A stretch of 64,000 bases of DNA from Chromatiales bacterium (GTDB lineage Bacteria; Pseudomonadota; Gammaproteobacteria; Chromatiales; Chromatiaceae). The notes under the pieces were generated by a model. It was not told the DNA's origin and searched no databases. It worked only from the letters and a program-made list of their open reading frames with translations. Location: assembly GCA_028284585.1 (NCBI GenBank), contig JANQRK010000008.1, positions 1,695 to 65,694 of the forward strand, written 5' to 3'. The stretch's first letter is position 1. Every line of letters starts with the position of its first letter. Below, in pieces: positions 1 through 15,190 of this stretch. The position numbers and the translations under genes were made by a program.

Positions 1-3000
1 TCAGTGACTTGGCATCGAGCACCGAGAGGTTGAATGCCTCGACGCTGATGTCTGCGTCGGCATCTGAGGTAATCAGCTCACTGTCCGTCACATAGGCCCG
101 TGCTGTGCTCAGGAGCTGGTTGTTTGCAATGACCCCGCCCCGCGAGCCCGAACCGCCAGAGCTGGAGGTGTTTTCGACCGTGCTCTCGTCCAGCGCCGTG
201 ATGCGTGCCATCTCGGTGGCGGTCACCGTGATGCCGCTGCCGGCGGTGATCAGGCTGTCGTCGATGAAGGCCTCGGTGCGGGCATCGACGTCATTGCGCG
301 CAATCAACCCGAAATTATTCTTGGCGGTGCCACCCGAGAGGCCGACCAGGGTGCGCACTGCTTTACCGATACTGCCCAGCGCGTTGAACTCGTCGACGCG
401 CTGCCAGATGCCGAAGTTCGTGTAGTCCGTTGTGCTGAGGACCTGCGTGGTGCCGTCCGCACCCATATAGCGGAAGATATCGCCCTCTTCGAGATCGTCA
501 TTCGGATCGAGGTCGGCGACATTCTTGCCGATGCGCACCTGGTCGCCGAATTCCATCGACGCGGTGCCGGACTCGGTGGTGAACTGGTAGTCCTGGAGTA
601 CCGTCGAGATGGCCTCGTCGACAATGCTGAAGCCGAGCGTATTGGTCTCGCTGGCCTCGGGCTCCATGGAGGTGGTCGCATCGATAATCGCGCTGTCGGT
701 CGCCGTGACATTTACGGCCCCCTCCGCGACCGGCGGGTCACCAAAGGTACCCCGCTCATCGACGTTGTCCATGCTGGCCTGCACCTCTGTGGCGAGCAGG
801 TTCGAGGCCAGGATGAAGGAGGTATTGACGCCGTCCGCACCATAGGCCGCCGCGGCCGCAGAGGTCGCCTGGGTATCTACCCGCGCCGTAATCAGCGCTT
901 CATTCATCGCCGTGACGTTCACATCGCCTAGGACATCCAGGTCGGAATCCACGACCGTTGCCATCACCCTGGCCGGATTGGCCGTGCCGATCGCATCGAT
1001 CAGGGCATCGATGCCCTGTGACAAGACATCCTGCGACTCGTAGCCGATGGTGTTGTAGGCGAGCATCACGCCGACTGACTCGGAGCCGGTCGAGACCGCG
1101 GTACTGTTGGTGGCGGTGATGGTCGACGAGTTCGTGGCGCTGACCGCAAAGTTGCCGGTAGCACCGCCACCGGCAACGCCGGCATCGACAGTGCTGTCCT
1201 CCACCGTCGCCAAGGCACTGCTAAGGATACCGTTGGTGGCGATGACGCCATTGTTGGCGGTCGATGTGCCTTTGCCGAAGATATTGCCGCCGGACGACTC
1301 GGCATCGGTGTCGGCAGTCGCTGTGATCTCGGCGTCGACGCTCGCCGTGACCGCGATATCGCCGGATGCAGTGCGTGCCGCGACATTGCTCAAGCGCGCC
1401 TCGACCTCGGTGGAGACTTCGTTGCGTACCAAAACGCCGCCGTAGGACAGCGAATTCGACGGCAGAAAATTATTGCCCTGCGGGATCAGGTCGGTCTCGA
1501 GGATCTCCTTCCAGAGATCGAGATTGCCGAAGTCCTCGTCGGCGAGGTCGAGATTGCGATTACTGCCGACGAACTCGTAGACCCGACCCGGCGATCCACC
1601 CTCGTCCGGGTCGGCCGCGAAGTCGGTGGTGAGGAATACGCTGTCGCCGAACTCCACCAAGGTGGTGCCGACCAGCTCGTTGCCGTCGGCGTCGAACACC
1701 ATGGTGCCGTCGGTCGAGAAGTCCGCGTCCTCTAAGCCGGCGATGGCCGTCCCGAGCAGGTTGGCACCGCCATCGCTTGACGTAATCGACGACGAGACCA
1801 GCTTGGAGTTGGAGAAGATGCCGGCGCTATCGCTCGCGTTGACCGTGATGCTGCCAGCGGCAAACACGGTCTCGGGCGACGCGGCCCCTGCGGTCTCGAT
1901 GTAGGCACGCGCCGAGGTGTTGGTGCGATTGGCCGCGATAGAGCCACTGACCGCCACACTGGCGACGCCCGCTGCGCCGAACAGCGCATCGGCAGTCGAA
2001 GAGGCTGCGTTGCTGACCGTCGCGTTGATCGCCGGTGAGGACTCGGCGTCGACGACGATGTCGCCACTGGTCGAGACCTCCGTGTCGACGATGAAGGCGC
2101 TGGTGTTACCGCCGTTGCTCGCGACCAGCTGGTCGAAGCCGACCACCACGTCACCGAAGCCCTCACCGACGGTCGCGCCGGTGGGGTTCGCGATTTCGAT
2201 ACCGATGGCATTATAGGCAAAGGCACCGCTGCCATTGCCGGTGACCGCGCCCGAGGTCGAGGACCCGGTCTTGGCCGTTGCCGTGATCAGCGCGTCATTG
2301 CTGGCCTGCACCTCGACGCCGCCGTCGGTCTCGACGAGGCTGTCGAGGATACTTGCCGTGATGTCACCGCCGATGATATTGGTCGCGATGGTCCCGTTGA
2401 AGGTCAGCTCGAGCGGATCGATCTGGGCACCGCCGCTATCAAGAATCTGTGCGTCGGTGAATGCCACTGCCTGGATCGCGCTGACCGCAGTGACGGCGAG
2501 CCCGCCGGACGCTACGGAAATCAGGCTGGAGTTGCCGTCGGTATCGTCGATGGTCGCCGATACCGAGCGCACGATGTCGTTGACCGCCGTGGCCGAACCC
2601 AGCTCCAACGGAAAGGTCAGCGCGCCGGGATCGAGCTGGAACTCCGATGAGGTGGCAGTGAGCTGGGCGGTGTCGCTGGCGCTGAGGTTGACGCCGGCAG
2701 CACCATCTATTTGCACCTCTGAGCCGGCGATGGACGCACTGGTCCCGCCGGTCACGGTGTTCTCCGCGCGCTTGGCCGTCGCCGTATAGGTCGCCATATT
2801 ACTGGCCTCGACATTCAGGCCATCGGCATTGATCTGCGCATTGGTGATACTGGCGGTTGCGGTGTCGCTGGCCGTGGTGACGTGTTGGCCGTACAGATCG
2901 GAAACGATGGTGCCGGCCGTCCCACCACCCGCATCATCGGCAATGCTCGCCGAGACGCTGGTGACACCGGCGTTGGTACTGCTGGTTCCAGATACTGTGG

Positions 3001-4606
3001 CAATGCCATTGGTGGCGTCACCAATGGCAGAAGTCGCCGAACGGGTCAGATCGATGGCCGAGCTGGCGTCGCTCAGATCGAGCTCGGTCAAATCAATGAG
3101 ATCGGCGCTGTCCTCGCTCGGGTCGTAGTCGATACGCACCGCAGAGGCGTCGGCGGCGTTCAAGCTCAAGCTGGTGTCGGCCACCACGGCGACGCCGCCC
3201 GCGATCGTGGCACTCGCGGTATGCGTACCGGTCACACTGGTGTCGCCATCGTCCAACAGACTGGCATCTTGGACCAGCACAGTGTAGAGACCGGAGACGT
3301 CGGCCGTGATGCCGACGACGCCACCGCTTAGCGCCGCATCGACCGCGACGCTCGCGTTGGCCTGATAGCTGAAATCGTCCAGCGTGGACTGACTGTCGCT
3401 GATATCGACCGAGGCATCCAACGTGATGTCGCCGGCCGCATCCAGGGCACCATCGACCACGATGGCCGCGTCCAGTCCGGTATCGACGTCGGCCGCGGCA
3501 GTGATGCTGACATCGCCAGCGGTCGAGGTGATGCTGGCGGTCTCGGTAAGGGTTACGCTCTCCGCGGTCGCGGAGAAATCGCCCGGCATACTCAGGATGG
3601 CATCGATTATCAGGGTATCGGTGCCGGTACCCAGGTCGATCAGCAGTGAATCAAATCCGGTTTCGAAGGTAACGAATTCGAAGGTGTCGGGCGTATCCGT
3701 GCTCTCGAAGGTGAAGACATCGCCGGACCTCGTCAGCGTCGCATTGTCGTCGCTGGCCAAGCTCAATAGGCCGAAGTCGAGCTCGATGGCGCTGACCGTC
3801 GCACCGAGAGGAATCGGTTCCAAGCCATCATAGCGCAGCGTCGCACCGTCCAAGACGACAACACCGGAATGGGGGCCGCTAAAACCGAAGGTCACGGTGT
3901 CATAGTGGCCGTCATTGATCTCCAGGGTATCGAAACCGCCGACGCCGCCGTCGAGCAGGCCGCTCGAGCCGGCACCTTGGTTCAGTACGAAGGTATCCTG
4001 GTTGTGCGCGGCGCCGAGCAGATTTTCCACCCCGCGGAAGCCGACGTGCTCGTTGAGGGTCCCGGCGTCGACGCCTGTGAGTTCCCAGAGGCTGTCCGTG
4101 GCATCGCCGGCCAGGGCATCGTCGCCGCCCCGGCCGTCGAAGGTGATCACCAGAGAACTCAGATCGTGTTCGAGACCCAGATCCAGGGTCAATAGATCAT
4201 CGAGCTCAGATCCCGTGATGACGACCTCGCTGACCGCGACCAATTGCCGTTGGGCGATTATTGGGGTCTGGGCATCCGTGTTATCCAGGATTTGGAGCAC
4301 CGGCGTGCCCGCATGTTCGACCAACCTCAGCGTAAGGTCGAAAGGGTTGTCGGCTTGTGCCGCAAAGCTCAGGGGGTCGGCTGACAGCAGCAGCCGGGGT
4401 TCGAGCGCCTCGAACTGAATCTTGGGGTGGCCCGGCAATGACCGTCGGATCGGGGGAGCCACACGCGGCCCTTCACGCCCTTTGATGCCGCCGCCCGGCC
4501 TGAGGAAAGGGGGTGTCGCTAGGGTCCGGCGGCCGGTTCGCCACAGTCGACTGCAAGCGGCCCGGAACGGCGTCTTGCCAGTCGCAGACACAAACGGGTG
4601 CGCCAT
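1..4606 (-). CDS. Giant LEPR-XLL-motif extracellular/surface protein, N-terminal part (>1535 aa, continues beyond left edge)
   Basis: Manual translation: ATG at 4606 with GGGGAAGAG RBS, then ...IQFEALEPRLLLSAD... (about 4380-4420), Gly/Asp-rich segments (FDGRGGDDAL, LDGGVGGFDTL) and long A/S/V/I/T/D-rich sequence. The ORF track lists no minus-strand ORF in this frame anywhere in 1-4606, consistent with no stop codon; spot checks agreed. Confidence 0.92.
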   Translation of the reverse strand, partial: MAHPFVSATGKTPFRAACSRLWRTGRRTLATPPFLRPGGGIKGREGPRVAPPIRRSLPGHPKIQFEALEPRLLLSADPLSFAAQADNPFDLTLRLVEHAGTPVLQILDNTDAQTPIIAQRQLVAVSEVVITGSELDDLLTLDLGLEHDLSSLVITFDGRGGDDALAGDATDSLWELTGVDAGTLNEHVGFRGVENLLGAAHNQDTFVLNQGAGSSGLLDGGVGGFDTLEINDGHYDTVTFGFSGPHSGVVVLDGATLRYDGLEPIPLGATVSAIELDFGLLSLASDDNATLTRSGDVFTFESTDTPDTFEFVTFETGFDSLLIDLGTGTDTLIIDAILSMPGDFSATAESVTLTETASITSTAGDVSITAAADVDTGLDAAIVVDGALDAAGDITLDASVDISDSQSTLDDFSYQANASVAVDAALSGGVVGITADVSGLYTVLVQDASLLDDGDTSVTGTHTASATIAGGVAVVADTSLSLNAADASAVRIDYDPSEDSADLIDLTELDLSDASSAIDLTRSATSAIGDATNGIATVSGTSSTNAGVTSVSASIADDAGGGTAGTIVSDLYGQHVTTASDTATASITNAQINADGLNVEASNMATYTATAKRAENTVTGGTSASIAGSEVQIDGAAGVNLSASDTAQLTATSSEFQLDPGALTFPLELGSATAVNDIVRSVSATIDDTDGNSSLISVASGGLAVTAVSAIQAVAFTDAQILDSGGAQIDPLELTFNGTIATNIIGGDITASILDSLVETDGGVEVQASNDALITATAKTGSSTSGAVTGNGSGAFAYNAIGIEIANPTGATVGEGFGDVVVGFDQLVASNGGNTSAFIVDTEVSTSGDIVVDAESSPAINATVSNAASSTADALFGAAGVASVAVSGSIAANRTNTSARAYIETAGAASPETVFAAGSITVNASDSAGIFSNSKLVSSSITSSDGGANLLGTAIAGLEDADFSTDGTMVFDADGNELVGTTLVEFGDSVFLTTDFAADPDEGGSPGRVYEFVGSNRNLDLADEDFGNLDLWKEILETDLIPQGNNFLPSNSLSYGGVLVRNEVSTEVEARLSNVAARTASGDIAVTASVDAEITATADTDAESSGGNIFGKGTSTANNGVIATNGILSSALATVEDSTVDAGVAGGGATGNFAVSATNSSTITATNSTAVSTGSESVGVMLAYNTIGYESQDVLSQGIDALIDAIGTANPARVMATVVDSDLDVLGDVNVTAMNEALITARVDTQATSAAAAAYGADGVNTSFILASNLLATEVQASMDNVDERGTFGDPPVAEGAVNVTATDSAIIDATTSMEPEASETNTLGFSIVDEAISTVLQDYQFTTESGTASMEFGDQVRIGKNVADLDPNDDLEEGDIFRYMGADGTTQVLSTTDYTNFGIWQRVDEFNALGSIGKAVRTLVGLSGGTAKNNFGLIARNDVDARTEAFIDDSLITAGSGITVTATEMARITALDESTVENTSSSGGSGSRGGVIANNQLLSTARAYVTDSELITSDADADISVEAFNLSVLDAKSL

Positions 4607-5022
4607 ACTCTTCCCCCTCGTCAACATTCCAGCCGCAAGATCGAATCCGGCTCAGTCAGCAGCAGCCGGCGGAAGACGCACACCCCGTCATCGACGGCGG
4701 GACCGGGCGCACCCAGCCGTCAGCGCAACCTACACTGCAGCGATACTCCGCCCAGACACCACCGCGTCACGCAGGGCTTGACGTGCCATCAGCCGATAGA
4801 CCGGACAGTTGCAATCTGGCACCGCAAAGGACGGTCCGTTGGGCCAGCTGAAGGTAGAGGGATCGCTATCCTAGTTCGAGGTTATTCTATGCTCAGCTTC
4901 CGAATTTCTTTCCTAAAGGATAGCGGCAAAACTATCGAATGCAATCCGCGGGATGCCCTGATGTGCACTCGGACTAGGCGCCGAGTCGAGACCTATTTGA
5001 GCAGTGCGGGCTATAAATAAAA

Positions 5023-5086: not shown

Positions 5087-5899
5087 CTAATCGGCGACGG
5101 TAGGCAGAAAGCGAATACCGCAACGTACACCGGCCGGTACGCGAAACTCGGTATTGGGCAGTACCAATCGAACGCCGAAGGTGTCGCTGGCCGGATCGAT
5201 CACGTTATCCACCACGCTGACGGTAGCAGTCTGGACCTCGGCACCCGGATAGCGGGGACTTACCTCGGCCTGCTGTCCTGCCTTAACGGCCCCAAAACGC
5301 TCCACGGGGAGGAGGACTTCGACATTCAGCGGATCGACTTCGGCGATCCGCAGTATCGTCGTGTTCTCGACCGACTCGCCGGGCGAGAGCAAGCGTTCGA
5401 CCACGATGCCTGCCACCGGACTGACCAGCGTCCTGCGCTTCAAGATCTTGCGCGCCCGTTCGAACTCCAGCTGGGCCAGCTTGCGCTGGTGTTGGGTCTG
5501 ACGCAGCCGCAACTGGGCGCGTCGCGCCTCGGTCGCCGCACGATCTTTCTCGGTCAAAGAGATCACCTTTTTCTCGAACAGATTCTCGATCCGCGCGAGT
5601 TCGCGCCGCGTCAAACCGACATCAGCGCGCCGCTCGGCCAGTTCGGCATCCATTTGCGCCCTCGCCTCGGCCAAGGCGACGCTAGCCTTCTCGACGTCCG
5701 CTTCCAACTGGACCACCACTTGCCCCGACTCGACCACATCACCCCGAGCGGCCAGGATGGACTCGACGATGCCCTCTTCGCGGGTGCTCAGGTCTATCAC
5801 CGAGCTGGGCTCGATCAGGCACCCGAAGCTCTTATCGTCCGACGCCTGACCGGCCGGCACCAAGACGCCGACGAACAACAGAACATGCCATTTCTTCAA
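5087..5899 (-). CDS. HlyD/RND-type periplasmic adaptor (membrane fusion protein), 270 aa
   Basis: Signal-like N-terminus, lipoyl-hybrid half motifs (GIVESILAARGDVVESGQVVVQL; LVSPVAGIVVER), coiled-coil hairpin, IDPASDTFGVRL beta-barrel; TTG start. Confidence 0.9.
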   Translation of the reverse strand: MKKWHVLLFVGVLVPAGQASDDKSFGCLIEPSSVIDLSTREEGIVESILAARGDVVESGQVVVQLEADVEKASVALAEARAQMDAELAERRADVGLTRRELARIENLFEKKVISLTEKDRAATEARRAQLRLRQTQHQRKLAQLEFERARKILKRRTLVSPVAGIVVERLLSPGESVENTTILRIAEVDPLNVEVLLPVERFGAVKAGQQAEVSPRYPGAEVQTATVSVVDNVIDPASDTFGVRLVLPNTEFRVPAGVRCGIRFLPTVAD

Positions 5900-5925: not shown

Positions 5926-7962
5926 TTACTCGGCTGTGCCGCCGAAGGCAAGTAACTCATTCAACTGCTCGTCGGCGCGTAACAGCCTTTTGCGAAGCCG
6001 CGAGTTGCGTCGCTCCAGTTTACGTTGCAGATGGCCGAGCAGTAGCCGACCCGCGGTCCCCATAACCGGCTTGGCACGCGAACGCGCCGGACCGAACAAG
6101 CGATCCAGCCAGTGTTTCGAGCACCCCTGCGCCAACTCGTCCTGCAACGACACCAGGTATTCATGCGATCCAGGGTCACCCTGGCGCCCGCTGCGGCCGG
6201 TCAACTGTCGATCGATACGCCTTGCTTCGTGAAACTCGGTCACTATCACGTGCAAACCACCCGCTTTGGCGGCAGCCGGTGACAATTTGATATCCGTGCC
6301 CCGGCCGGCCATGTTGGTCGCCACGGTCACGCACCCGGCCTGTCCCGCCTGCGCGATCACTTGTGCCTCTTGCCGGTCCTGACGTGCATTAAGGATTTGA
6401 TGCGGAATACCCGCCGCCCGCAACCGCTCGCCGAGCACTTCGGATGCACCAAGGGTTCGGGTACCCACCAACACCGGGCGTTGCTCGGTACGCAATTCGC
6501 AAACCCGCGCCACCACCGCATCCCATTTGTCATCCAGGGTGCGATACACAGCCCCGGGCATGGCACGGCGCTGCGAGCGCCGATGGGTGGGTACTTCCAC
6601 GACATCGAGCCCGTAGACCGCCCACAGCTCGTTCACCACTTCCCGTGCTGTTCCGGTCATTCCGGCAAGCTTCAGGTAGCGCCTAAAGAAGCGTTGGTAG
6701 CTGATACGGGCCAAAGTGCGTGGTGTGCTGGTGATATCGCATGCCTCCTTCGCCTCGATCAGCTGGTGTAGATTACGCTGCCAGGAGCGATCAACCATCG
6801 TGCGGCCGGTGTTTTCATCAATGATTTCGATGCGGCCGTCCCGGACCAGGTAGTGAATGTCCCTCTCGTACAGGTGTAACGCGCACAGCGCCTGGCCCGC
6901 CAACTCTTCGCGGCGACGAGTCGACGACCAAGGGCCACCCAGCGATGCCGCCAGCGCTCGCAAACGGGACTTGCCCGCATCAGTGAAAGTGACGTCGCGA
7001 TGGGCGGCATCGATAGTAAACTCACGCTCCGGTGTGAACTGCTCAGCAACCCAAAGGGCTTGTTGATACATATCCTGATTCACTTCGCCTTGATCACGCC
7101 GTGAGATGATCAATGGCGTGCGCGCCTCATCCACCAACACGCTGTCCGCCTCATCGACGATCGCATAACAAAGGCCTCGCAACATCAGGCGCTGTGATCG
7201 CGGCTGCTCGGTATGTAGGCCTTCCAGCTCCATTCGCAATCGACCGTGCGACGTATCGGTCACTAGCCGATCCCTTAGATAATCGAAGACCAGTTGCTTG
7301 TTGGTGCAGTAGACGATATCGCAGGCATAGGCCGCCTGGCGTTCAGTCGTGCTCATCGCCGCGGTGACGCTCCCCACGGTAAGCCCCATGTAGTCGTAAA
7401 CGGGGGCCATCCACTGGGCATCGCGGGTCACCAAGTAATCGTTCAAGGTGACGATGTGAACAGGCACACCGGCGAGCGCCGATACCCCTGCCGGCAAAGT
7501 CGCCGTCAGGGTCTTGCCTTCGCCGGCCTCCATCTCCGCGACCACGCCGCTGTATATCAGCCATCCACCGAGGAGTTGCACGTCGAAGTGCCGCATGCCC
7601 AGGGTGCGAGACGCAACCTCTTGAACCATGGCGAAACCACGCGCAGCGTCTTTGCGGTGGTTGCCGGTAGCGGACAGACGCCGGCGCAGCAAGCTGATCT
7701 CGGCCTTTAGGGCCTGATCCGACAACCGACGCAGTTGCTCCGCCTCTTTGTGTATCAAGGGCAGAATTTTGCAATTCAGATCGGCACGGCGACGCATGAG
7801 TTGGCGTCTTTGCCCGCTGATCGCTGCGACGGCGCAATCAAGGGCGCCTAGGGGAGTTTCTGGTCGCTGTGGGTAACTGCCTAAGGCGACCCCTGGCCGC
7901 AATGCTGAGCTGAACATCGACTTATACCGTGCGTTGGAAATCTGCCAAATCTCGCGGCCCAT
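5926..7962 (-). CDS. SecA-like DEAD ATPase paralog lacking the C-terminal part (accessory SecA)
   Basis: MEAGEGKT Walker A (7510-7524 for GEGKT), DEADSVLVDEARTPLIIS, GMTGTA, ATNMAGRGTDIKL, RRIDRQLTGRSGRQGDPG; ends about 70 aa later. Likely start is ATG 7917 (MFSSALRPG). Confidence 0.93.
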   Translation of the reverse strand: MGREIWQISNARYKSMFSSALRPGVALGSYPQRPETPLGALDCAVAAISGQRRQLMRRRADLNCKILPLIHKEAEQLRRLSDQALKAEISLLRRRLSATGNHRKDAARGFAMVQEVASRTLGMRHFDVQLLGGWLIYSGVVAEMEAGEGKTLTATLPAGVSALAGVPVHIVTLNDYLVTRDAQWMAPVYDYMGLTVGSVTAAMSTTERQAAYACDIVYCTNKQLVFDYLRDRLVTDTSHGRLRMELEGLHTEQPRSQRLMLRGLCYAIVDEADSVLVDEARTPLIISRRDQGEVNQDMYQQALWVAEQFTPEREFTIDAAHRDVTFTDAGKSRLRALAASLGGPWSSTRRREELAGQALCALHLYERDIHYLVRDGRIEIIDENTGRTMVDRSWQRNLHQLIEAKEACDITSTPRTLARISYQRFFRRYLKLAGMTGTAREVVNELWAVYGLDVVEVPTHRRSQRRAMPGAVYRTLDDKWDAVVARVCELRTEQRPVLVGTRTLGASEVLGERLRAAGIPHQILNARQDRQEAQVIAQAGQAGCVTVATNMAGRGTDIKLSPAAAKAGGLHVIVTEFHEARRIDRQLTGRSGRQGDPGSHEYLVSLQDELAQGCSKHWLDRLFGPARSRAKPVMGTAGRLLLGHLQRKLERRNSRLRKRLLRADEQLNELLAFGGTAE

Positions 7963-8007: not shown

Positions 8008-10155
8008 CTATACCCCGAAATGGCTCAGAAACAACTGTCTGAGACTGCGGTACCACTGGCGTGCCAATGGCTCGACGCCATGATCAAAGCGCACATAGAC
8101 GCGATTGCCGATGCGCTCAATCGCCTGTAGACCCGGAACGGCCAAATCGAGCTGAAATACCCTCTGCAGCGTCTTCAATCCCGCGGGATCCTGTGGATCA
8201 AGCGCTAACGCACCACCGCCTTCGGTCGCCAAGGCCGCAGTCGGCAGACGATCCGCAGCCCCTGGCACAAAGCGGCTGATACTGGCGCGCATCGGTTCTG
8301 CTGTCCAGTCCGCCAAGCGTACATCAACCCGATGGGTTTGCTCGCGAACCAGCCCGATCTGCTCTTGATCGACGACAACTCTCACCGCGATATCTTCGGG
8401 TGAAAGAACATAGCCGACCAATTCGCCGCGTCGCAGGAACCGGCCCGGTAGATCTTCGGCATTGGGCACAATGAATACGCCGTCGGTCGGGCTAAGGATA
8501 ACCAGTGCCGCCAGGCGCTCGCTGGCGCGTGTCAACTCGGCGCGCACGCTCTCGATCTCAGCACGAATGACATCGGCACGGGTCGGATTGGCGAACTCTT
8601 GCTGCATATACCTGGCATCCAACTCCTCCAATCGGCTTTGCAGTAAGCGCACGTTCGCTTGCTGCAAAGTCGCTTCACAACGCACCAGGGGTTGGCCCTT
8701 GCGTACCAAGTCATTCGGTTGCGTCATCAGCTCCGCTACGAAGCCCTCCGCCTCGCTGCGTACCAGCGATTGTTGAGGCATCCAGACGACGCCTTCCGCA
8801 CGCGTCCACAAGGGCGCAGGAACGAGCAGCAGCAACCCGAGCATGCCACCCAGGATACACCCGGTCGACACCAGGGCACGTGCCCGAGTACGTTGCAACA
8901 CCGGGCTATGAAACACAAACCAAAGGCTCTTGAGCGACGGATAGACCACCATCACAACAACAGCCCAAATCGCCAAGATTAGCCCCAGCACAAAGAACTT
9001 GCCCGAAACAAACAGGACAATGACGAACACGATAAACAGGCGATAAACGAAGGAGGCGATGCCATAAATCAAGAACCAAGCCCGCTCGCCGGGCGCGGTT
9101 ACCGGTGAGCTGGCTTGCTCGGCCTTGAAGAGATAGCGCTGCACCAGGTACCCCAAGTACTTTTTGGAGCGCGTGGCAAGATTGGGGATCTCTATGGTGT
9201 CCGCGAGGACATAGTAGCCATCAAATCTAAGCAAAGGATTGCCGTTGAAAAGTAGCGTCGAAATACTGCCAATGAGCACGACATTGAAGGCGAAGGTACG
9301 AACCAATCCCGGCTCGACCAGCAACCAGATCATCAAGGCCAATGCCGCCAGCAGTAGCTCGACCATGATCCCTATTGCGCCCACGATCATGCGTTGGTGT
9401 TTGTCGCTGAACGCAGCCGCCGATGACGCCTCGACATAGGGTATGGGGGCCAGGACCAGCAAGATGATCCCCATCTCGTGTACCTCTCCCCCCCATACCT
9501 TGACCGCATAGCCGTGGCCGAACTCGTGCACCATCTTGATCAGGGGATAAGCCGCCCACAGCATCAATAGATTCTGGAACGTCAGCACACGATCCACGAC
9601 ATTGTCGGTCAATTCGCTCCAGTGCATACCGGCCAAGACAGCACCGGCACCGACGACGAGTAGCCACGCAAAGAACCCGAACCAACTAAACAGAGGGCGA
9701 ACCAACGGCAAGGTGGCGGACAAGAATCGTTCAGGATCGAGCAAGGGGAAGCGAATGGCCAAGGGATTTGTGAACCGCTGCCGCCACTTGGCGCGCCGCT
9801 GACGTTGGCCGCGCTGAAATACCTCTCGCGTATCCGGTATCACGTCCGATTGTAGGACGTCGGCCGCGTGTAGCTGGCCTAGCAGCCGCAGCAGTTCATC
9901 TTGCGTGGGGGCATGCTCACCGAGTTCGCGTTCGGCCAGTTCCCAAACCTGCTGGAGTGTGCGGTGCCCGTCGAGCAGGCCGATCACGAAGTTGGCCGCT
10001 GGGGTGAAGCGGAACGAGCGTTCGTTGGATGGATCGCGCAGCACGTACCAGATTTGGCCTCGGTACTCGTGTCGATCGAACTGCGCATGCCGCCGAATGC
10101 TCGGCTTCAGCGCCGCCACGCGGTACCAAGATGTGCTGGTCAGTGCCTCCCGCAT
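8008..10155 (-). CDS. PqqD/RRE-like domain + site-2 (M50) metalloprotease + HlyD-like adaptor fusion, 715 aa
   Basis: HEFGH (9514-9528) and NPLLRFDG (9217-9240) M50 motifs, multiple TM helices, C-terminal lipoyl-hybrid/coiled-coil region; N-terminal about 90 aa resembles the PqqD pattern (YVLRDP...FRF...LLDGHRTL). Confidence 0.88.
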   Translation of the reverse strand: MREALTSTSWYRVAALKPSIRRHAQFDRHEYRGQIWYVLRDPSNERSFRFTPAANFVIGLLDGHRTLQQVWELAERELGEHAPTQDELLRLLGQLHAADVLQSDVIPDTREVFQRGQRQRRAKWRQRFTNPLAIRFPLLDPERFLSATLPLVRPLFSWFGFFAWLLVVGAGAVLAGMHWSELTDNVVDRVLTFQNLLMLWAAYPLIKMVHEFGHGYAVKVWGGEVHEMGIILLVLAPIPYVEASSAAAFSDKHQRMIVGAIGIMVELLLAALALMIWLLVEPGLVRTFAFNVVLIGSISTLLFNGNPLLRFDGYYVLADTIEIPNLATRSKKYLGYLVQRYLFKAEQASSPVTAPGERAWFLIYGIASFVYRLFIVFVIVLFVSGKFFVLGLILAIWAVVVMVVYPSLKSLWFVFHSPVLQRTRARALVSTGCILGGMLGLLLLVPAPLWTRAEGVVWMPQQSLVRSEAEGFVAELMTQPNDLVRKGQPLVRCEATLQQANVRLLQSRLEELDARYMQQEFANPTRADVIRAEIESVRAELTRASERLAALVILSPTDGVFIVPNAEDLPGRFLRRGELVGYVLSPEDIAVRVVVDQEQIGLVREQTHRVDVRLADWTAEPMRASISRFVPGAADRLPTAALATEGGGALALDPQDPAGLKTLQRVFQLDLAVPGLQAIERIGNRVYVRFDHGVEPLARQWYRSLRQLFLSHFGV

Positions 10156-10171: not shown

Positions 10172-12073
10172 CTACGGCTTCCAGGACCACAGCCAGAATC
10201 GCAGCCAGTGGATCAGCTTGTGGGTCCAGATCCAAACCTGCTTGCGCTGACCGATCTGGATCTTGCCGACGCCCTCCATTCCCGGACGAAGTCGCGACGA
10301 GGACCCTTCTAGGTTTGCTTCAACCCTGAAATAGTTGCCCCCTCCCTTAGCACTGGAGATCGGGGTGATCTTGGTGATCCGCATGGGCAAAATCTCGGTG
10401 CTCAATCCAGCTAGCACCAACTGACCTACCTGCCCCGGCTGCACCTGCGAGGCATCTCGCTCATCCACGTTGAGAATGACCCGATAGCTGTTCAGGGGTG
10501 CGATCTCGAACAAGGTATCGCCGCGTGCCACAGGTACGCCCAGTGACTGACTCATATCACCGGATACCACGACACCGTCGAACGGTGCCTTCAATCGGGT
10601 GCGCGCCAACTGCTCGTCTAGCAGCAACAATTGACTGTCGGCCTGGTCGATCTGCGCCTGTAACACACGTACTTGCGCACGATCGCGGTCTGCAAGCGCC
10701 TCGCTGTATTCGCGCTGTCGTTGTTCTTTCTGGCTCGCCCACTTGGCCCGTTGTAGGCGCAGATCTTTGTCTTCGAGCGTACACAAGACGTCGCCGGCCT
10801 GGACCACATCACCTGCCCGGTAGAACGCCTGGTCGACATAGCCATCGAGCAGTGCGGTGACTACCCGTTGAATCGAACCCTGCAGATGGGCATCAGCGGT
10901 AACCCGATAATCGCCTTCGGCGAAGTACGCGTAGGCCGCGACACAAGTCAGCAATGTTGCGGCCAACTTGAGTCCAAGGTGCCGGGGTCCGATCAACCGC
11001 CCTCCGAATCCCACTACAGAATCCCAGAGCTTGCTAACGATCCAGCGGTCGTCGCGGCGCTTGACCTCGAGGATTGGGCCGGCCAAGGTCGCAATGTTGC
11101 GACACAATTCCACAGTCGCTTGATCGAAAGATTGTCCCAGGGGACGGGCCAAAGTCATTGCGCCGACAAGCCGATCACCGTCTACCAAGGGGATGGTGCA
11201 AACGCCACCCAGGGTCGCCTGCTCCAAGAGCTGCGTCTGGGCACGAATCTGGACCAGGCTCGCCTCCGACTGATCGGGTGCTGGGCTGACCAAGACCCTT
11301 GCCTGCTCTATGGCTTCGTCCATCGCAGCACCGATCGAACGATGCAAGTTGGTCTTCTCGTTGATTGCCGCACTATGCGACCAGGCTGACACCCGAACTC
11401 GTCGGCCCGACCCGAAGCCCAGCGCGGCCCATTCGCAATCCAAATGCGTGGCAAGCTCGGTGGCCAGGGCGGTCACCGCAGCGCGAAAACTTGCTTGCTC
11501 CAAAGGCACAGCGATCAGTTCGAGCAGCGTCACCAGCCGCTCCTTGGAAGTGAAGGCTTTGCGCCTGACCAAGGCCTCCAACCATCCGCAGCTCCACTGC
11601 AATTGGCGCATGATGGAGCCTAGCTCGGTCGAGTCGCGGTCCTTGACTTCGACGGCGGCAACCCCGTGCAACAGTTCATCGACGACGATAGGGAAAGCTA
11701 CCGCATCTGGTCCACGGCGATCGCTGACTGTCGTCGAGTCACTACTACGTACGACACCCCGCCGCTCTGCCATGGCCAACTCGGCCGCCGCCACCAACAG
11801 AGGACTGCCGGATCCACCAACCGGCCAATAGGCGAGCGGCCGGTACGGGCCCACTCCGGCCTTGCCGAGGACGACAGCTGCATGTTGTACACCGCCGGTG
11901 AAGCGGCACAGCAATTCCAACCAGGCGGCCGCGAAGGCCTCGGGCGAAGATGCCCGTTGGAATTCGACCCAAGCTTGTTTATCGATGTAAGGTGCATCCG
12001 CCGCCGCGGTGACCTCACCCTCGCACTCGACCGAGGCAGAATCGTGCGACGTATCCTCAAGCCCAGTTGCCAA
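10172..12073 (-). CDS. GAF-domain-containing HlyD-family adaptor, 633 aa
   Basis: Two GAF-like segments (AFPIVVDELLHGVAAVE; CTIPLVDGDRLVGAMTL), one TM (LGLKLAATLLTCVAAYAYF), then hybrid motif, coiled coil, LKAPFDGVVVSGD, LRPGMEGVGKI. Confidence 0.88.
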   Translation of the reverse strand: MATGLEDTSHDSASVECEGEVTAAADAPYIDKQAWVEFQRASSPEAFAAAWLELLCRFTGGVQHAAVVLGKAGVGPYRPLAYWPVGGSGSPLLVAAAELAMAERRGVVRSSDSTTVSDRRGPDAVAFPIVVDELLHGVAAVEVKDRDSTELGSIMRQLQWSCGWLEALVRRKAFTSKERLVTLLELIAVPLEQASFRAAVTALATELATHLDCEWAALGFGSGRRVRVSAWSHSAAINEKTNLHRSIGAAMDEAIEQARVLVSPAPDQSEASLVQIRAQTQLLEQATLGGVCTIPLVDGDRLVGAMTLARPLGQSFDQATVELCRNIATLAGPILEVKRRDDRWIVSKLWDSVVGFGGRLIGPRHLGLKLAATLLTCVAAYAYFAEGDYRVTADAHLQGSIQRVVTALLDGYVDQAFYRAGDVVQAGDVLCTLEDKDLRLQRAKWASQKEQRQREYSEALADRDRAQVRVLQAQIDQADSQLLLLDEQLARTRLKAPFDGVVVSGDMSQSLGVPVARGDTLFEIAPLNSYRVILNVDERDASQVQPGQVGQLVLAGLSTEILPMRITKITPISSAKGGGNYFRVEANLEGSSSRLRPGMEGVGKIQIGQRKQVWIWTHKLIHWLRFWLWSWKP

Positions 12074-12598: not shown

Positions 12599-14767
12599 TC
12601 AAGGCGCTGCATCGGCCTTGACATTGTCAATGATGACGACAGTCCTTTCGTCGGAATAGGTCTTTTTGTTGTTGAATCCACCAATGGCGACCCTGTGCTC
12701 GCCGGCCGAGAGTTCGCCGAGGTCGACTTGGAACCTCTGCCAACCGGACGTCTTCCAAGGACCACCGTTTCCGTCACCCCTGATCCGCTTCAGAAAGCTA
12801 CCACCAGGTGCACCAATCAGGTTTCCATCGACAGACAGAAGTGCATCACTGTACTCGTCGCTCTCATAACCTGGGGCCTGGGCTATGCGATAGTCAAAGG
12901 ATAGGGTTACCTTGCTCGGGCTACTCAAGGAAAAGGTCCTCTGCCATCCACCCGACATATCCTGGACTGCGCGGTTGTCCCGGCCGCCCAGCACCACTGC
13001 TAGGAAGCCGTCGCCATTTCGCCAGGCGGCATGTCTTCCCGAGGCGTAACGCGGGTGATTGGTATTGCGGAAAGCATCAGCGACGAACTCGAAGCCCTCG
13101 GTGTCTTCAGTGAAGTCCGAATGAAAAATTGCCGGCCCGTCGTCACCGCGGACGTTGATTCTTACCTCTGCCGTATTGTTCGAAGGATTGTCGTCATTGT
13201 CCGCTGCCGAGTTCACGGTGCTTGTCAGCGTATCCGCTGCCGGCCCGGCTTGTAATCGCATGACGACCGTCCGTGTGGAACTGCTGTCAATGTCGCCAAA
13301 GTCACAGCTCACCTCCGACTGACTCTCAAAACACTGCGCCCCGCCGTCGGCGACGTCGATCATCGCCAAACTCTCTGGTATCGAGATCGCAGCCGTTACA
13401 TTTGTCGCGACGGCCACACCGCTGTTTCTCACCTCCACTCGATACTCGAATTCGCTCAGGACCGTCGTTTCGATCGGGTTCGTCGGAATGATCACTCGAA
13501 CGTCCGTGGTCGCAGGAGGCGGCTGATCAGGGTCGTCAACTTCTGTGATACAGACCGCGCGATCAATATGCGGTTGCATCTGGTCCAAACTGCACTGAGA
13601 GAATTGATCGCTGCCATTGCCGAACGGATTCATAATGAAGTTCCCTGCCGTATTCGCACAGGGTGAGCCGCCCTGATTATCGTGCGGCGCACCGAAGTTG
13701 TGGCCCATCTCATGCGCGACTATCAAGGCTCCCGCCGTGCCTCTACCAGTGGTTTGACTCAGCCCGACACCAAAGGCCTCGCGACACAAGGTGCCGACGT
13801 AGGCAATGCCGACGACGCCACCATTTAGATCTCTCCCGGTAAACAGGTGCGCCAAACCAGGATTGACAAAGTCGCTAGCGGCCACAAAGTCGCTGAACTG
13901 GTCCAGAAGAGTGCCGGCTTGCGAGGAACTCAATCCTCCGTTGCTCCGCAATGCACGAATCTCAGTGACATTGATTTGAACACCCACCTGCTCAGAGTAG
14001 ATGCCGTCAACAATGTTCATACGGGCCACCACAGCGGCATCCGGATTGCTGGGATTGGCGTCGACAAACTGCCTGTCCGCGACCACGGCGATGTCGAGCT
14101 TTCGAGCCGCCGCCGGGAGAGCCTGTCTCAATGTACGCAGCTCGTCCACCAAGCCTTGGTAATCATCCATAGGCCTCGCGCTTGGATGTACCGCACAGCT
14201 TCCCGTACAGGACTCGGTATCTGAAAGCCGATATATCACTGGATACGGCTGGCGCTGTCGTGCCTTTGGTGCCGCAGCGCCTTGCTGATCATCCAGCATC
14301 GGTTCCACTCGGTCGGATGTATCGATGATGTACAGCTCCTCGCCATCCCACATGGTTCCGGAGATCTGCTCTCCCGCACGATTGATGCGTACCCAAGACC
14401 CATCGATGCCTTCGATGTAGCCCTCGTAGGCCGTCATGGATTTTTCGAGTCGCTGTCTCTGCTCTTCGGGCAGATCAGCAATCAACCGGGTATTCGGCTT
14501 GAGGACTACAGCGAACCGCTTTCCAAAGGCCTCGAAAGTCAGCGTGGCCTCAGATGCCTGCTCGGCTTGCTGCGCCGCTTGGGCGTTATCAGTTGATAAG
14601 GAGGGCGGTAGGCCGAACTCCACCGATTGCATGGGCTCATGATGGAGTATGCGGAAATCTTCATCGACGGTGAGGGCACCTTCGTGAACACCATGAGCGA
14701 GTGAGGCTCGCCCTTGAATACCGATACACAGTATTGCTAACAAAATATACGTTGTAGATCTTCTCAT
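12599..14767 (-). CDS. Secreted reprolysin-like (M12B) zinc metallopeptidase with DUF11/Ig-like and C-terminal beta-sandwich domains
   Basis: Signal peptide, prodomain, HEMGHNFGAPHD zinc motif, Met-turn FIMNP, DUF11-like NSAADNDDNPSNNTA; ATG 14767 has a GGAG RBS. Confidence 0.9.
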   Translation of the reverse strand: MRRSTTYILLAILCIGIQGRASLAHGVHEGALTVDEDFRILHHEPMQSVEFGLPPSLSTDNAQAAQQAEQASEATLTFEAFGKRFAVVLKPNTRLIADLPEEQRQRLEKSMTAYEGYIEGIDGSWVRINRAGEQISGTMWDGEELYIIDTSDRVEPMLDDQQGAAAPKARQRQPYPVIYRLSDTESCTGSCAVHPSARPMDDYQGLVDELRTLRQALPAAARKLDIAVVADRQFVDANPSNPDAAVVARMNIVDGIYSEQVGVQINVTEIRALRSNGGLSSSQAGTLLDQFSDFVAASDFVNPGLAHLFTGRDLNGGVVGIAYVGTLCREAFGVGLSQTTGRGTAGALIVAHEMGHNFGAPHDNQGGSPCANTAGNFIMNPFGNGSDQFSQCSLDQMQPHIDRAVCITEVDDPDQPPPATTDVRVIIPTNPIETTVLSEFEYRVEVRNSGVAVATNVTAAISIPESLAMIDVADGGAQCFESQSEVSCDFGDIDSSSTRTVVMRLQAGPAADTLTSTVNSAADNDDNPSNNTAEVRINVRGDDGPAIFHSDFTEDTEGFEFVADAFRNTNHPRYASGRHAAWRNGDGFLAVVLGGRDNRAVQDMSGGWQRTFSLSSPSKVTLSFDYRIAQAPGYESDEYSDALLSVDGNLIGAPGGSFLKRIRGDGNGGPWKTSGWQRFQVDLGELSAGEHRVAIGGFNNKKTYSDERTVVIIDNVKADAAP

Positions 14768-15190
14768 TGGCACTCCAAGTTGGTGGATTGGGAAAGTGAG
14801 ATCCAGTCATATTTTTATTTCATTTAGATAGCTCCACGGCCGACCAGATACGTCCGAAAAATTGATTTCCACAGCTCTGCTTCACGGCCACCGATGGATA
14901 ATTCGCCAATTGGCAACATTGAGATATTGGAGAGTCATGCCACGGATAAGCGAAAAACCGAGATAATTGATAGTTGCTAGGAATATGGACTAGCGAAATC
15001 AACGAATACTCTCCACATCGATGTCCAATAAATGTCGTTCGGCGTCATTCAGATCGATCGTCGAAAACAAACCCAGTTCGAACATCCAGTTAGAGGTACC
15101 GCGGTCGTGCGCCAATGCATCACGCTCGCTTGGATGACCCATGGGTCAAAGCGACCTTAGCGCTTCAACAGGCATTCGGTCTGTTGGATT

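Follow-up and report, generated by a model that had tools for sequence, protein, structure and literature searches.

Which protein reads the leader of the LEPR-XLL proteins, and by what machine might they leave the cell? Some of the largest proteins of bacteria belong to the LEPR-XLL group, with open frames of 10,000–19,000 amino acids in the genomes sampled here, and an experimentally defined export route for them was not found in the literature. The question is raised by a stretch of 64,000 nucleotides from a Chromatiales bacterium (assembly GCA_028284585.1, contig JANQRK010000008.1, positions 1,695–65,694 of the forward strand; the window hereafter). It contains part of a giant LEPR-XLL gene and, close by, a gene that fuses three domains: one resembling PqqD and the recognition elements (RREs) of peptides that are made on the ribosome and modified after translation (RiPPs), an M50 site-2 protease and a HlyD-type adaptor. 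Our favoured answer, held with modest confidence, is that the fusion gene encodes the substrate-recognition and processing subunit of a type-I-like envelope exporter for LEPR-XLL giants, one that lacks an ATP-binding cassette (ABC) transporter.

Domain structure of the fusion protein

The interval 8008–10155 coincides exactly with one open reading frame on the minus strand. The gene and its parts are:

8008–10155, minus strand: gene for the fusion of RRE-like domain, M50 site-2 protease and HlyD-type adaptor, a stop-free frame of 715 amino acids
10117–10137, minus strand: conserved N-terminal motif S-x-S-W-Y-R-V, residues 7–13
9853–10104, minus strand: PqqD/RRE-like winged-helix domain, residues 18–101, predicted cytoplasmic
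9769–9831, minus strand: basic linker helix between the RRE-like domain and the first membrane helix, residues 109–129
8815–9756, minus strand: M50 site-2 protease membrane domain, residues 134–447, with about seven transmembrane helices and a beta-hairpin (residues 227–242)
9514–9528, minus strand: HEFGH zinc-binding and catalytic motif, residues 210–214, within helix 193–220
9217–9240, minus strand: NPLLRFDG motif, residues 306–313, following helix 284–304, with D312 as the third zinc ligand
8011–8814, minus strand: periplasmic membrane-fusion adaptor of the HlyD/MexA type, residues 448–715, with an alpha-hairpin

This three-domain architecture, put forward in a first-pass annotation of the window, is borne out by sequence profiles, by an AlphaFold2 model and by the alignment of homologues. 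The domain fusion is real and strongly conserved: the protein has more than 6,900 close homologues, nearly all of about 715 residues, and at E < 1e-30 its family comprises 4,464 clusters at 50% identity, which places it far beyond a chance arrangement. Seven hydrophobic helices are predicted. The predicted inner loops contain 3, 6 and 2 Lys and Arg residues, against 1, 0 and 0 in the outer loops, and from these positive-inside counts the amino-terminus, with the RRE-like domain, is predicted to lie in the cytoplasm and the carboxy-terminus, with the adaptor, in the periplasm. This is the arrangement that a model of leader delivery needs.

The carboxy-terminal 270 residues or so are a true membrane-fusion adaptor. 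Pfam HlyD_3 matches this part at E 8.6e-9, HlyD_D23 is also matched, and the best sequence match in the PDB is the HlyD chain of the haemolysin exporter (8dck_C, E 7.8e-7). In the AlphaFold2 model the alpha-hairpin is formed by helices 496–519 and 524–549, and Foldseek relates the domain to MexA, AcrA and MacA (E 3e-12, probability 1.0).

The central domain has the hallmarks of an M50 protease, namely HExxH in one transmembrane helix, the Asp ligand near another and a polytopic core. The first-pass annotation had called the HExxH and NPxxxxDG metal ligands complete, and they are. In an alignment of 37 sequences, H210, E211, H214, N304, N306, P307, D312 and G313 are invariant. A wider census of the ligands, covering 269 homologues and 50%-identity representatives, found HExxH in 267 of the 269, the two exceptions being amino-terminally truncated fragments. 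No full-length homologue lacks the Asp of NPxxxxD, and the next residue is Gly in 242 of them and Ala or Ser in about 25. Ligands kept in all 267 full-length relatives suggest that the protease is held active by selection and is not a relic, and this conservation argues for retained M50 catalysis. Pfam M50 matches 32 of the 37 aligned homologues at E ≤ 0.01 (best 4e-7), while the chain of MjS2P (3b4r) is found by sequence at E 0.27 only.

The amino-terminal segment had been described as patterned like PqqD, with three beta-strands preceding the helices, and structure prediction finds an RRE-type order. Two AlphaFold2 models, one of the full-length protein and one of residues 1–125 (pLDDT about 83, and 78–95 over the RRE-like domain), place strands 26–31, 34–41 and 46–50 before helices 52–60, 67–81 and 85–97. 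The same order is found in the canonical RRE, a winged helix-turn-helix of about 80–90 residues with a three-stranded antiparallel sheet and three helices. In the window protein, Pfam PqqD (PF05402) aligns residues 37–100 to positions 2–66 of its 67-position profile (E 0.0029, 18.3 bits), and 30 of the 37 homologues match it at E ≤ 0.01, the best at 2.9e-6. When a profile of residues 1–125 was run against 177,635 PDB sequences, two matches were obtained, both of them PqqD (3g2b, E 0.015, and 5sxy, E 0.19), and one of the two alignments covers the entire amino-terminal domain. Some members of the family are publicly tagged PF05402 or "PqqD family peptide modification chaperone".

In Foldseek searches with the isolated amino-terminal model, the top matches include the RREs TbiB1 (5v1v, 5v1u), 6jx3, ThcOx, CteB, MibB and TglHI. 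TbiB1 with its leader (5v1v) is matched with a probability of 0.99 and a TM score, normalised to the target, of 0.63; for stand-alone RREs the target-normalised scores are 0.58–0.63, with E ≥ 0.066. The full-length model returned only adaptor structures, and nothing on the RRE-like or M50 domains. As no single match to a solved RRE reaches significance (best E 0.066), the assignment of the domain as RRE-like relies on fold topology, profile matches and homology to the daptide protease. Leaders generally bind RREs at strand 3 and helix 3. Residues conserved across the clades described below include R49 in strand 3 and Q85, L91 and Q94 in helix 3 of the RRE-like domain, while W10 and R12 of the preceding motif are kept in clades A and B.

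Homology to RiPP leader peptidases

The daptide leader peptidase is described as an RRE fused amino-terminally to an intramembrane site-2 protease that takes off the leader (Ren et al., bioRxiv 10.1101/2023.03.08.531785). The corresponding NCBIfam model, daptide_HExxH (NF041824), matches residues 41–404 of the fusion protein with E 2e-47, so that the match reaches into the RRE-like domain, and it is found in all 37 family members (best 7e-51). The amino-terminal two-thirds of the protein are thus homologous, as judged by these profiles, to a published class of RRE-dependent leader peptidases. The model for the epipeptide protease YydH/LiaK (NF058609) also matches all 37 members, the best at 3e-12, over the protease core only (residues 175–327; 34 bits against a family cut-off of 225). 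The enzymes of daptide clusters (aminotransferase, dehydrogenase, methyltransferase) and an ABC transporter are absent from the locus. From this context and from a score well below the equivalog threshold, given below, the fusion protein is classed by sequence as a homologue, not a member, of the daptide protease family.

One reading of this homology is that the fusion protein matures and exports a small RiPP-like peptide, as the daptide and epipeptide proteases do, and that the giant gene lies beside it by accident. Its best named matches are indeed RiPP proteases, and a family name in the JGI/KEGG style is "putative peptide zinc metalloprotease". Against this, a LEPR giant is adjacent in most loci of three deep clades and its leader subtype tracks the clade. 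Neither the locus in the window nor any related locus that was read showed RiPP modification enzymes (short precursor reading frames were not scanned), and for want of them the reading was rejected; we hold it to be very improbable.

LEPR-XLL proteins and their leaders

The presumed substrate in the window is represented by two features:

2–4627, minus strand: 5' portion of the giant LEPR-XLL gene, with over 1,542 amino acids in the window and an open frame of 2,115 amino acids to the contig end
4376–4417, minus strand: candidate recognition motif QFEALEPRLLLSAD in the basic leader of the giant, which has no hydrophobic core

The encoded protein contains FEALEPRLLLSAD and is recognised by the NCBIfam model NF012209, "LEPR-XLL domain-containing protein". 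Its start is ambiguous within 4438–4627: an ATG at 4606 and a GTG at 4462 both have a Shine-Dalgarno-like sequence upstream. With a start at the GTG, the L of LEPR would be preceded by 19 residues, similar to the shorter leaders of other genomes, and with the longest frame by 74. Among the sampled genomes, leaders consist of 13–60 basic residues with no hydrophobic core, followed by an alternating, strand-like motif. Leaders of this kind are not Sec signal peptides, as the hydrophobic core of these is missing.

A scan of contigs with the single fusion protein gave 11 loci, and the broader sampling came from genome-wide searches. In an even draw of 401 genomes of the phylum, a homologue of the fusion protein is present in 97, a LEPR-XLL match in 57 and both in 53 (odds ratio 90, Fisher p 3e-34, uncorrected for phylogeny). 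The association is also one of position: 38 of the 47 tabulated LEPR genes share a contig with an M50-adaptor gene, with roughly 1–11 kb between the gene ends.

Leader subtypes were compared with protein clades in loci L019–L038, L060–L067 and L074–L078 and in the source genome, and three pairs of clade and leader were obtained:

Clade A: about 37% or more identity to the query; leader h-E-x-LEPR-h-L-L-S-[AG]-[DE], with Pro in 18 of 20
Clade B: 30–35% identity; leader h-E-K-LE[D/E]R-I-L-L-S-A-[DE], in 7 of 7
Clade C: 25–28% identity, without a SecA paralogue; leader x-x-A-LE[P/Q]R-h-h-h-D-[GA]-A, in 7 of 7

A leader peptide of the clade A type reads …KIQFEALEPRLLLSADPL. Between clades A and B the association of leader subtype with clade has a p of 4e-5. 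Modules of clades A and B coexist in three genomes (G006, G022 and G146), and there each module lies beside its own type of leader. Such matching, maintained even inside single genomes, argues for specific recognition between machine and leader. The co-occurrence in 53 of 57 genomes, the proximity of 38 of 47 genes within about 11 kb and the co-segregation of subtype and clade make a strong functional link between the fusion protein and the LEPR-XLL giant, the pairing that the first-pass annotation had assumed.

For clade C an instructive locus is G087:C1:5198179-5208765 (L079, L016), in which the module follows a repetitive protein of 3,528 amino acids that begins …HALALEQRILFDGAAAA. This protein has a leader of the LEQR…DGAA type (start MQAKYRSKLFQPAAHALALEQRILFDGAAAA) and is not matched by NF012209 at E ≤ 0.01, so that G087 had counted as negative for LEPR-XLL; it follows that this model is too insensitive and under-counts leaders of the LEPR type.

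Gene row and paralogous modules

Three further genes form a row with the fusion gene:

10172–12073, minus strand: upstream partner of 633 amino acids with GAF domains, a single transmembrane helix and a HlyD-type adaptor, 16 bp from the fusion gene
5926–7962, minus strand: downstream partner, a shortened SecA paralogue of 678 amino acids, with a gap of 45 bp to the fusion gene
5087–5899, minus strand: small periplasmic HlyD-type adaptor of 270 amino acids with a signal-peptide-like amino-terminus, with a gap of 26 bp to the SecA paralogue

The row is co-directional in the order GAF-adaptor, fusion, SecA paralogue and small adaptor, and the LEPR-XLL giant gene follows after about 460 bp. The same gene order is found in eight loci (L001–L008) of Gamma- and Betaproteobacteria and Desulfosarcinaceae, and carriers of the row include Neptuniibacter (cultured strains, loci L001–L003), Motiliproteus, a betaproteobacterium, a Desulfosarcinaceae genome and other Gammaproteobacteria. 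In relatives the giant gene may stand on either side of the four-gene row. The GAF domains of the upstream partner are cytoplasmic. The SecA paralogue contains the SecA_DEAD, preprotein cross-linking and P-loop domains, and the SecA wing and scaffold domain was not found in it by Pfam. Its alignment with models of full-length SecA ends near profile position 606 of 789, and housekeeping SecA of other genomes aligns to residues 70–561 only; by this comparison the last 115 residues or so belong to the paralogue alone. The shortened SecA gene adjoins the M50-adaptor gene in almost every locus of clades A and B.

A sigma-70-like promoter was not found between 4300 and 12800. In the same interval two terminator-like sites were found, one inside the fusion gene and one inside the gene for the SecA paralogue; these are uninformative, since they lie within coding sequence and are fewer than in shuffled sequence.

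The source genome contains three LEPR-XLL giants, the one in the window and two on contig C91 (about 3,200 and 2,003 amino acids), and three fusion paralogues, in the window, on C91 (43% identity) and on C115 (40%). The further modules of GAF-adaptor and RRE-M50-adaptor lie at C91:39997-67995 and C115:4320-8242. The small adaptor is also part of the C91 module; on C115 only the first two genes are seen. The second giant of C91 is preceded only by a small adaptor, with two genes between it and the first module, which from their amino-terminal sequences alone look like a two-component pair. The SecA paralogue is found only in the window module, the sole other SecA of the source genome being the housekeeping gene.

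An ABC, resistance-nodulation-division (RND) or major facilitator superfamily (MFS) pump was not found in any locus examined. One explanation is that the M50 domain mainly serves as an inner-membrane channel or scaffold in place of an ABC transporter, with the winged helix docking the SecA-like ATPase or the GAF domains and the preprotein clamp of the SecA-like protein reading the leader. The pore role was suggested for this domain in 2015 (PMC4452313); the SecA paralogue does retain its preprotein cross-linking domain, and the Foldseek matches to RREs are weak. A channel or scaffold sits poorly, however, with metal ligands and a catalytic Glu that are kept in all full-length homologues down to 39% identity. 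Moreover, clade C and the C91 and C115 modules have no dedicated SecA paralogue, and C91 and clade C still keep LEPR-type leaders beside the M50-adaptor gene. The persistence of the leaders without this paralogue points to the M50-adaptor or the GAF-adaptor as the constant reader. We regard the channel or scaffold explanation as improbable.

The GAF domains bear on another explanation, in which the leader is recognised as we propose and the protease acts as a regulated switch for release or quality control, not as a signal peptidase during export. Here the giant would stay tethered to the inner-membrane complex by its uncleaved leader until a cut by the M50 domain, perhaps gated by the GAF-adaptor, frees it or clears a jam, on the model of LapG and LapD acting on LapA. 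The cytoplasmic GAF domains of the partner suggest a signal input, a two-component pair may lie between the two giants of C91, and site-2 proteases are classically regulatory; the conservation of the catalytic residues fits either role. Yet, among named proteins, its nearest relatives act in biosynthesis as leader peptidases and are not site-2 proteases of the regulatory kind, and a site-1 protease or anti-sigma-like partner is not conserved in the row. We therefore consider a switch unlikely.

An outer membrane channel is encoded in some related loci. TolC-type OEP genes occur in the loci of giant and exporter L015 (1037–2530) and L017, and SapC-family genes (E about 1e-74) in L001 (15175–16026) and L017, which together with L018 belongs to G262:C1. 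A pairing of SapC and TolC beside the LEPRxLL giants of Chlorochromatium has been described in a preprint, and the LEPR-XLL motif is present in that organism's giant symbiosis proteins. The accessory genes DUF3467 and SapC, found with the row in other genomes, are both absent from the source genome, which is 95% complete, so neither is obligatory. In L015 the exporter and the giant gene are separated by a sulfotransferase gene. Immediately upstream of the exporter row in the window (12599–14773, minus strand) lies a gene for a secreted-looking zinc protease of the reprolysin type (M12B), which also has a DUF11 repeat and a C-terminal region like choice-of-anchor-J; a counterpart was not seen at the matching position in L001, the sole related locus in which the upstream side was read.

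Proposed mechanism

In the mechanism that we favour, recognition and processing of the giant by the fusion protein, the exporter would be made up of the GAF-adaptor, the RRE-M50-adaptor, the shortened SecA as motor, the small adaptor and, to judge from relatives, a channel of the TolC type. In the cytoplasm, the RRE-like domain (residues 18–101) would bind the strand-forming h-x-h-E-x-LEPR-h-L-L-S-A-D segment in the short basic leader of the giant, probably in the manner of other RREs, along strand 3 and helix 3. The domain would then hand the leader to the M50 active site (H210, E211, H214 and D312), which is expected to open towards the cytoplasm. The SecA-like ATPase would drive and thread the chain, and the leader would be clipped while this happens or afterwards. 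The carboxy-terminal adaptor and the two other adaptors would span the periplasm to the TolC-like channel. Leader binding by the RRE-like domain, cleavage by the M50 domain and the timing of that cleavage are what we infer from the domains and their genomic setting. The mechanism of leader recognition and clipping outlined in the first-pass annotation is, on this basis, plausible and partly supported.

Several points weigh against this proposal. The co-occurrence statistics ignore the shared ancestry of the genomes, and the co-segregation of subtype and clade implicates the machine as a whole, in which the leader could instead be read by the SecA-like clamp or the GAF domains. Taken alone, the window protein scores below the curated Pfam cut-offs for both PqqD (23.4 bits) and M50 (17.7 bits against a gathering score of 27.2), and daptide_HExxH gives it 162 bits, where the equivalog cut-off is 300. 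Foldseek found no match to the isolated amino-terminal model at E < 1e-3 and ranks the unrelated winged-helix proteins Rv2067c and NO66 beside the RREs, and Pfam PqqD is not matched in the clade C relatives. The usual targets of known site-2 proteases are transmembrane or strongly hydrophobic segments, in many cases of proteins that have already been cut once, and the hydrophobic part of the LEPR leader is only the short LLLSA stretch. The C91 and C115 modules, being without a SecA paralogue, indicate that the composition of the machine is not fixed.

A bolder version may be considered, to which we give somewhat less than even credence. The fusion protein would form the substrate-selecting core of a distinct pathway, in which an RRE-guided metalloprotease-adaptor and a SecA-derived motor replace the unit of C39 peptidase and ABC transporter of type I systems and the largest proteins of bacteria are exported with the amino-terminus first; the leader subtypes and RRE clades would be orthogonal address codes for two or three parallel exporters.

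If the proposal is correct, the orphan LEPR-XLL signal becomes tied to a concrete receptor and a cleavage event, and a recognition module of RiPP leaders serves a substrate thousands of residues long, which widens the scope of RREs. It would also mean that export through an adaptor and a TolC-type conduit can be driven independently of ABC transporters, by a SecA-derived motor, and the paired subtypes of leader and machine would offer orthogonal secretion tags for engineering.

Comparison with known systems

The gene row in the window is the "secondary SecA_DEAD" locus of Kamneva, Poudel and Ward (2015; PMC4452313), with the four genes in order and gaps of 16, 45 and 26 bp. These authors described a locus of GAF-HlyD, Peptidase_M50-HlyD, SecA_DEAD and HlyD/biotin-lipoyl genes and left its role unknown; a carrier named in their paper is Methylobacterium extorquens AM1 (META1p2399-2402). 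They noted domains like those of type I secretion, the lack of an ABC transporter and an occasional OEP gene, and proposed the M50 domain as a pore, not as a leader peptidase. LEPR-XLL neighbours are not mentioned in their paper, in which the words "PqqD" and "giant" have 0 occurrences, and full-text literature searches found no paper that links the RRE-M50-HlyD fusion to LEPR-XLL leaders or treats it as a leader reader. Fusions of an RRE with a site-2 protease are known from daptides (2023) and the gene row from 2015; the window protein is a variant on these, a site-2 protease of the RRE-dependent leader-peptidase class that is joined to a secretion adaptor. The earlier suggestion that RiPP-style recognition has been repurposed for a giant substrate is partly supported, by homology to RiPP leader peptidases, linkage to the giant and predicted topology; given the published fusions and gene row, the idea is not wholly new.

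One of the closest named relatives of the RRE-protease part is the daptide peptidase MpaP/DapP, which has the same order of RRE and M50 domains and for which the proposed role is alike, leader recognition followed by removal at the membrane. The published daptide leader motif ELExMEAP (E-L-D-P-M-E in MpaA) loosely resembles E-x-L-E-P-R. The fusion protein differs in its additional periplasmic adaptor of 270 residues, in a presumed substrate of thousands of residues instead of a peptide of about 30–50, and in its occurrence in Gram-negative lineages with SecA-like and TolC-type partners. YydH/LiaK, the M50 metalloprotease of epipeptides, is likewise a membrane-bound RiPP leader peptidase with a homologous M50 core. 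In lasso peptide biosynthesis, the stand-alone RRE B1 (TbiB1 and the B1 protein 6jx3 among the structural matches above) shares the fold, and B1 and B2 share the logic by which an RRE hands the leader to a peptidase; B2, however, is a soluble cysteine protease of the transglutaminase fold, and the lasso system has no membrane or secretion component.

A likeness to the C39 peptidase of peptidase-containing ABC transporters (PCATs) had also been drawn, and it stands as an analogy of role. If our proposal holds, a protease that faces the cytoplasm would in both cases be fused to a part of the export apparatus and would remove an amino-terminal leader on the way through an adaptor and a TolC-type route. 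It does not extend to the components, since among the proteins of the window row there are no matches to C39 or ABC domains and the leader is of the LEPR type, not the double-glycine type; the fusion protein combines an intramembrane zinc enzyme with an adaptor, and the ATPase is a separate SecA paralogue. The giant adhesins of type I systems (LapA with LapBCE, LapG and LapD; SiiE; MpIBP) are, like the LEPR-XLL proteins, giant repetitive surface proteins; HlyD-type adaptors are shared as well, as are TolC-type channels, the genes of which occur in relatives of the window row, and in the Lap system the amino-terminus of the giant is proteolytically processed. Type I adhesin systems rely on a carboxy-terminal signal and an ABC transporter, whereas the LEPR row combines a conserved amino-terminal signal with the absence of such a transporter.

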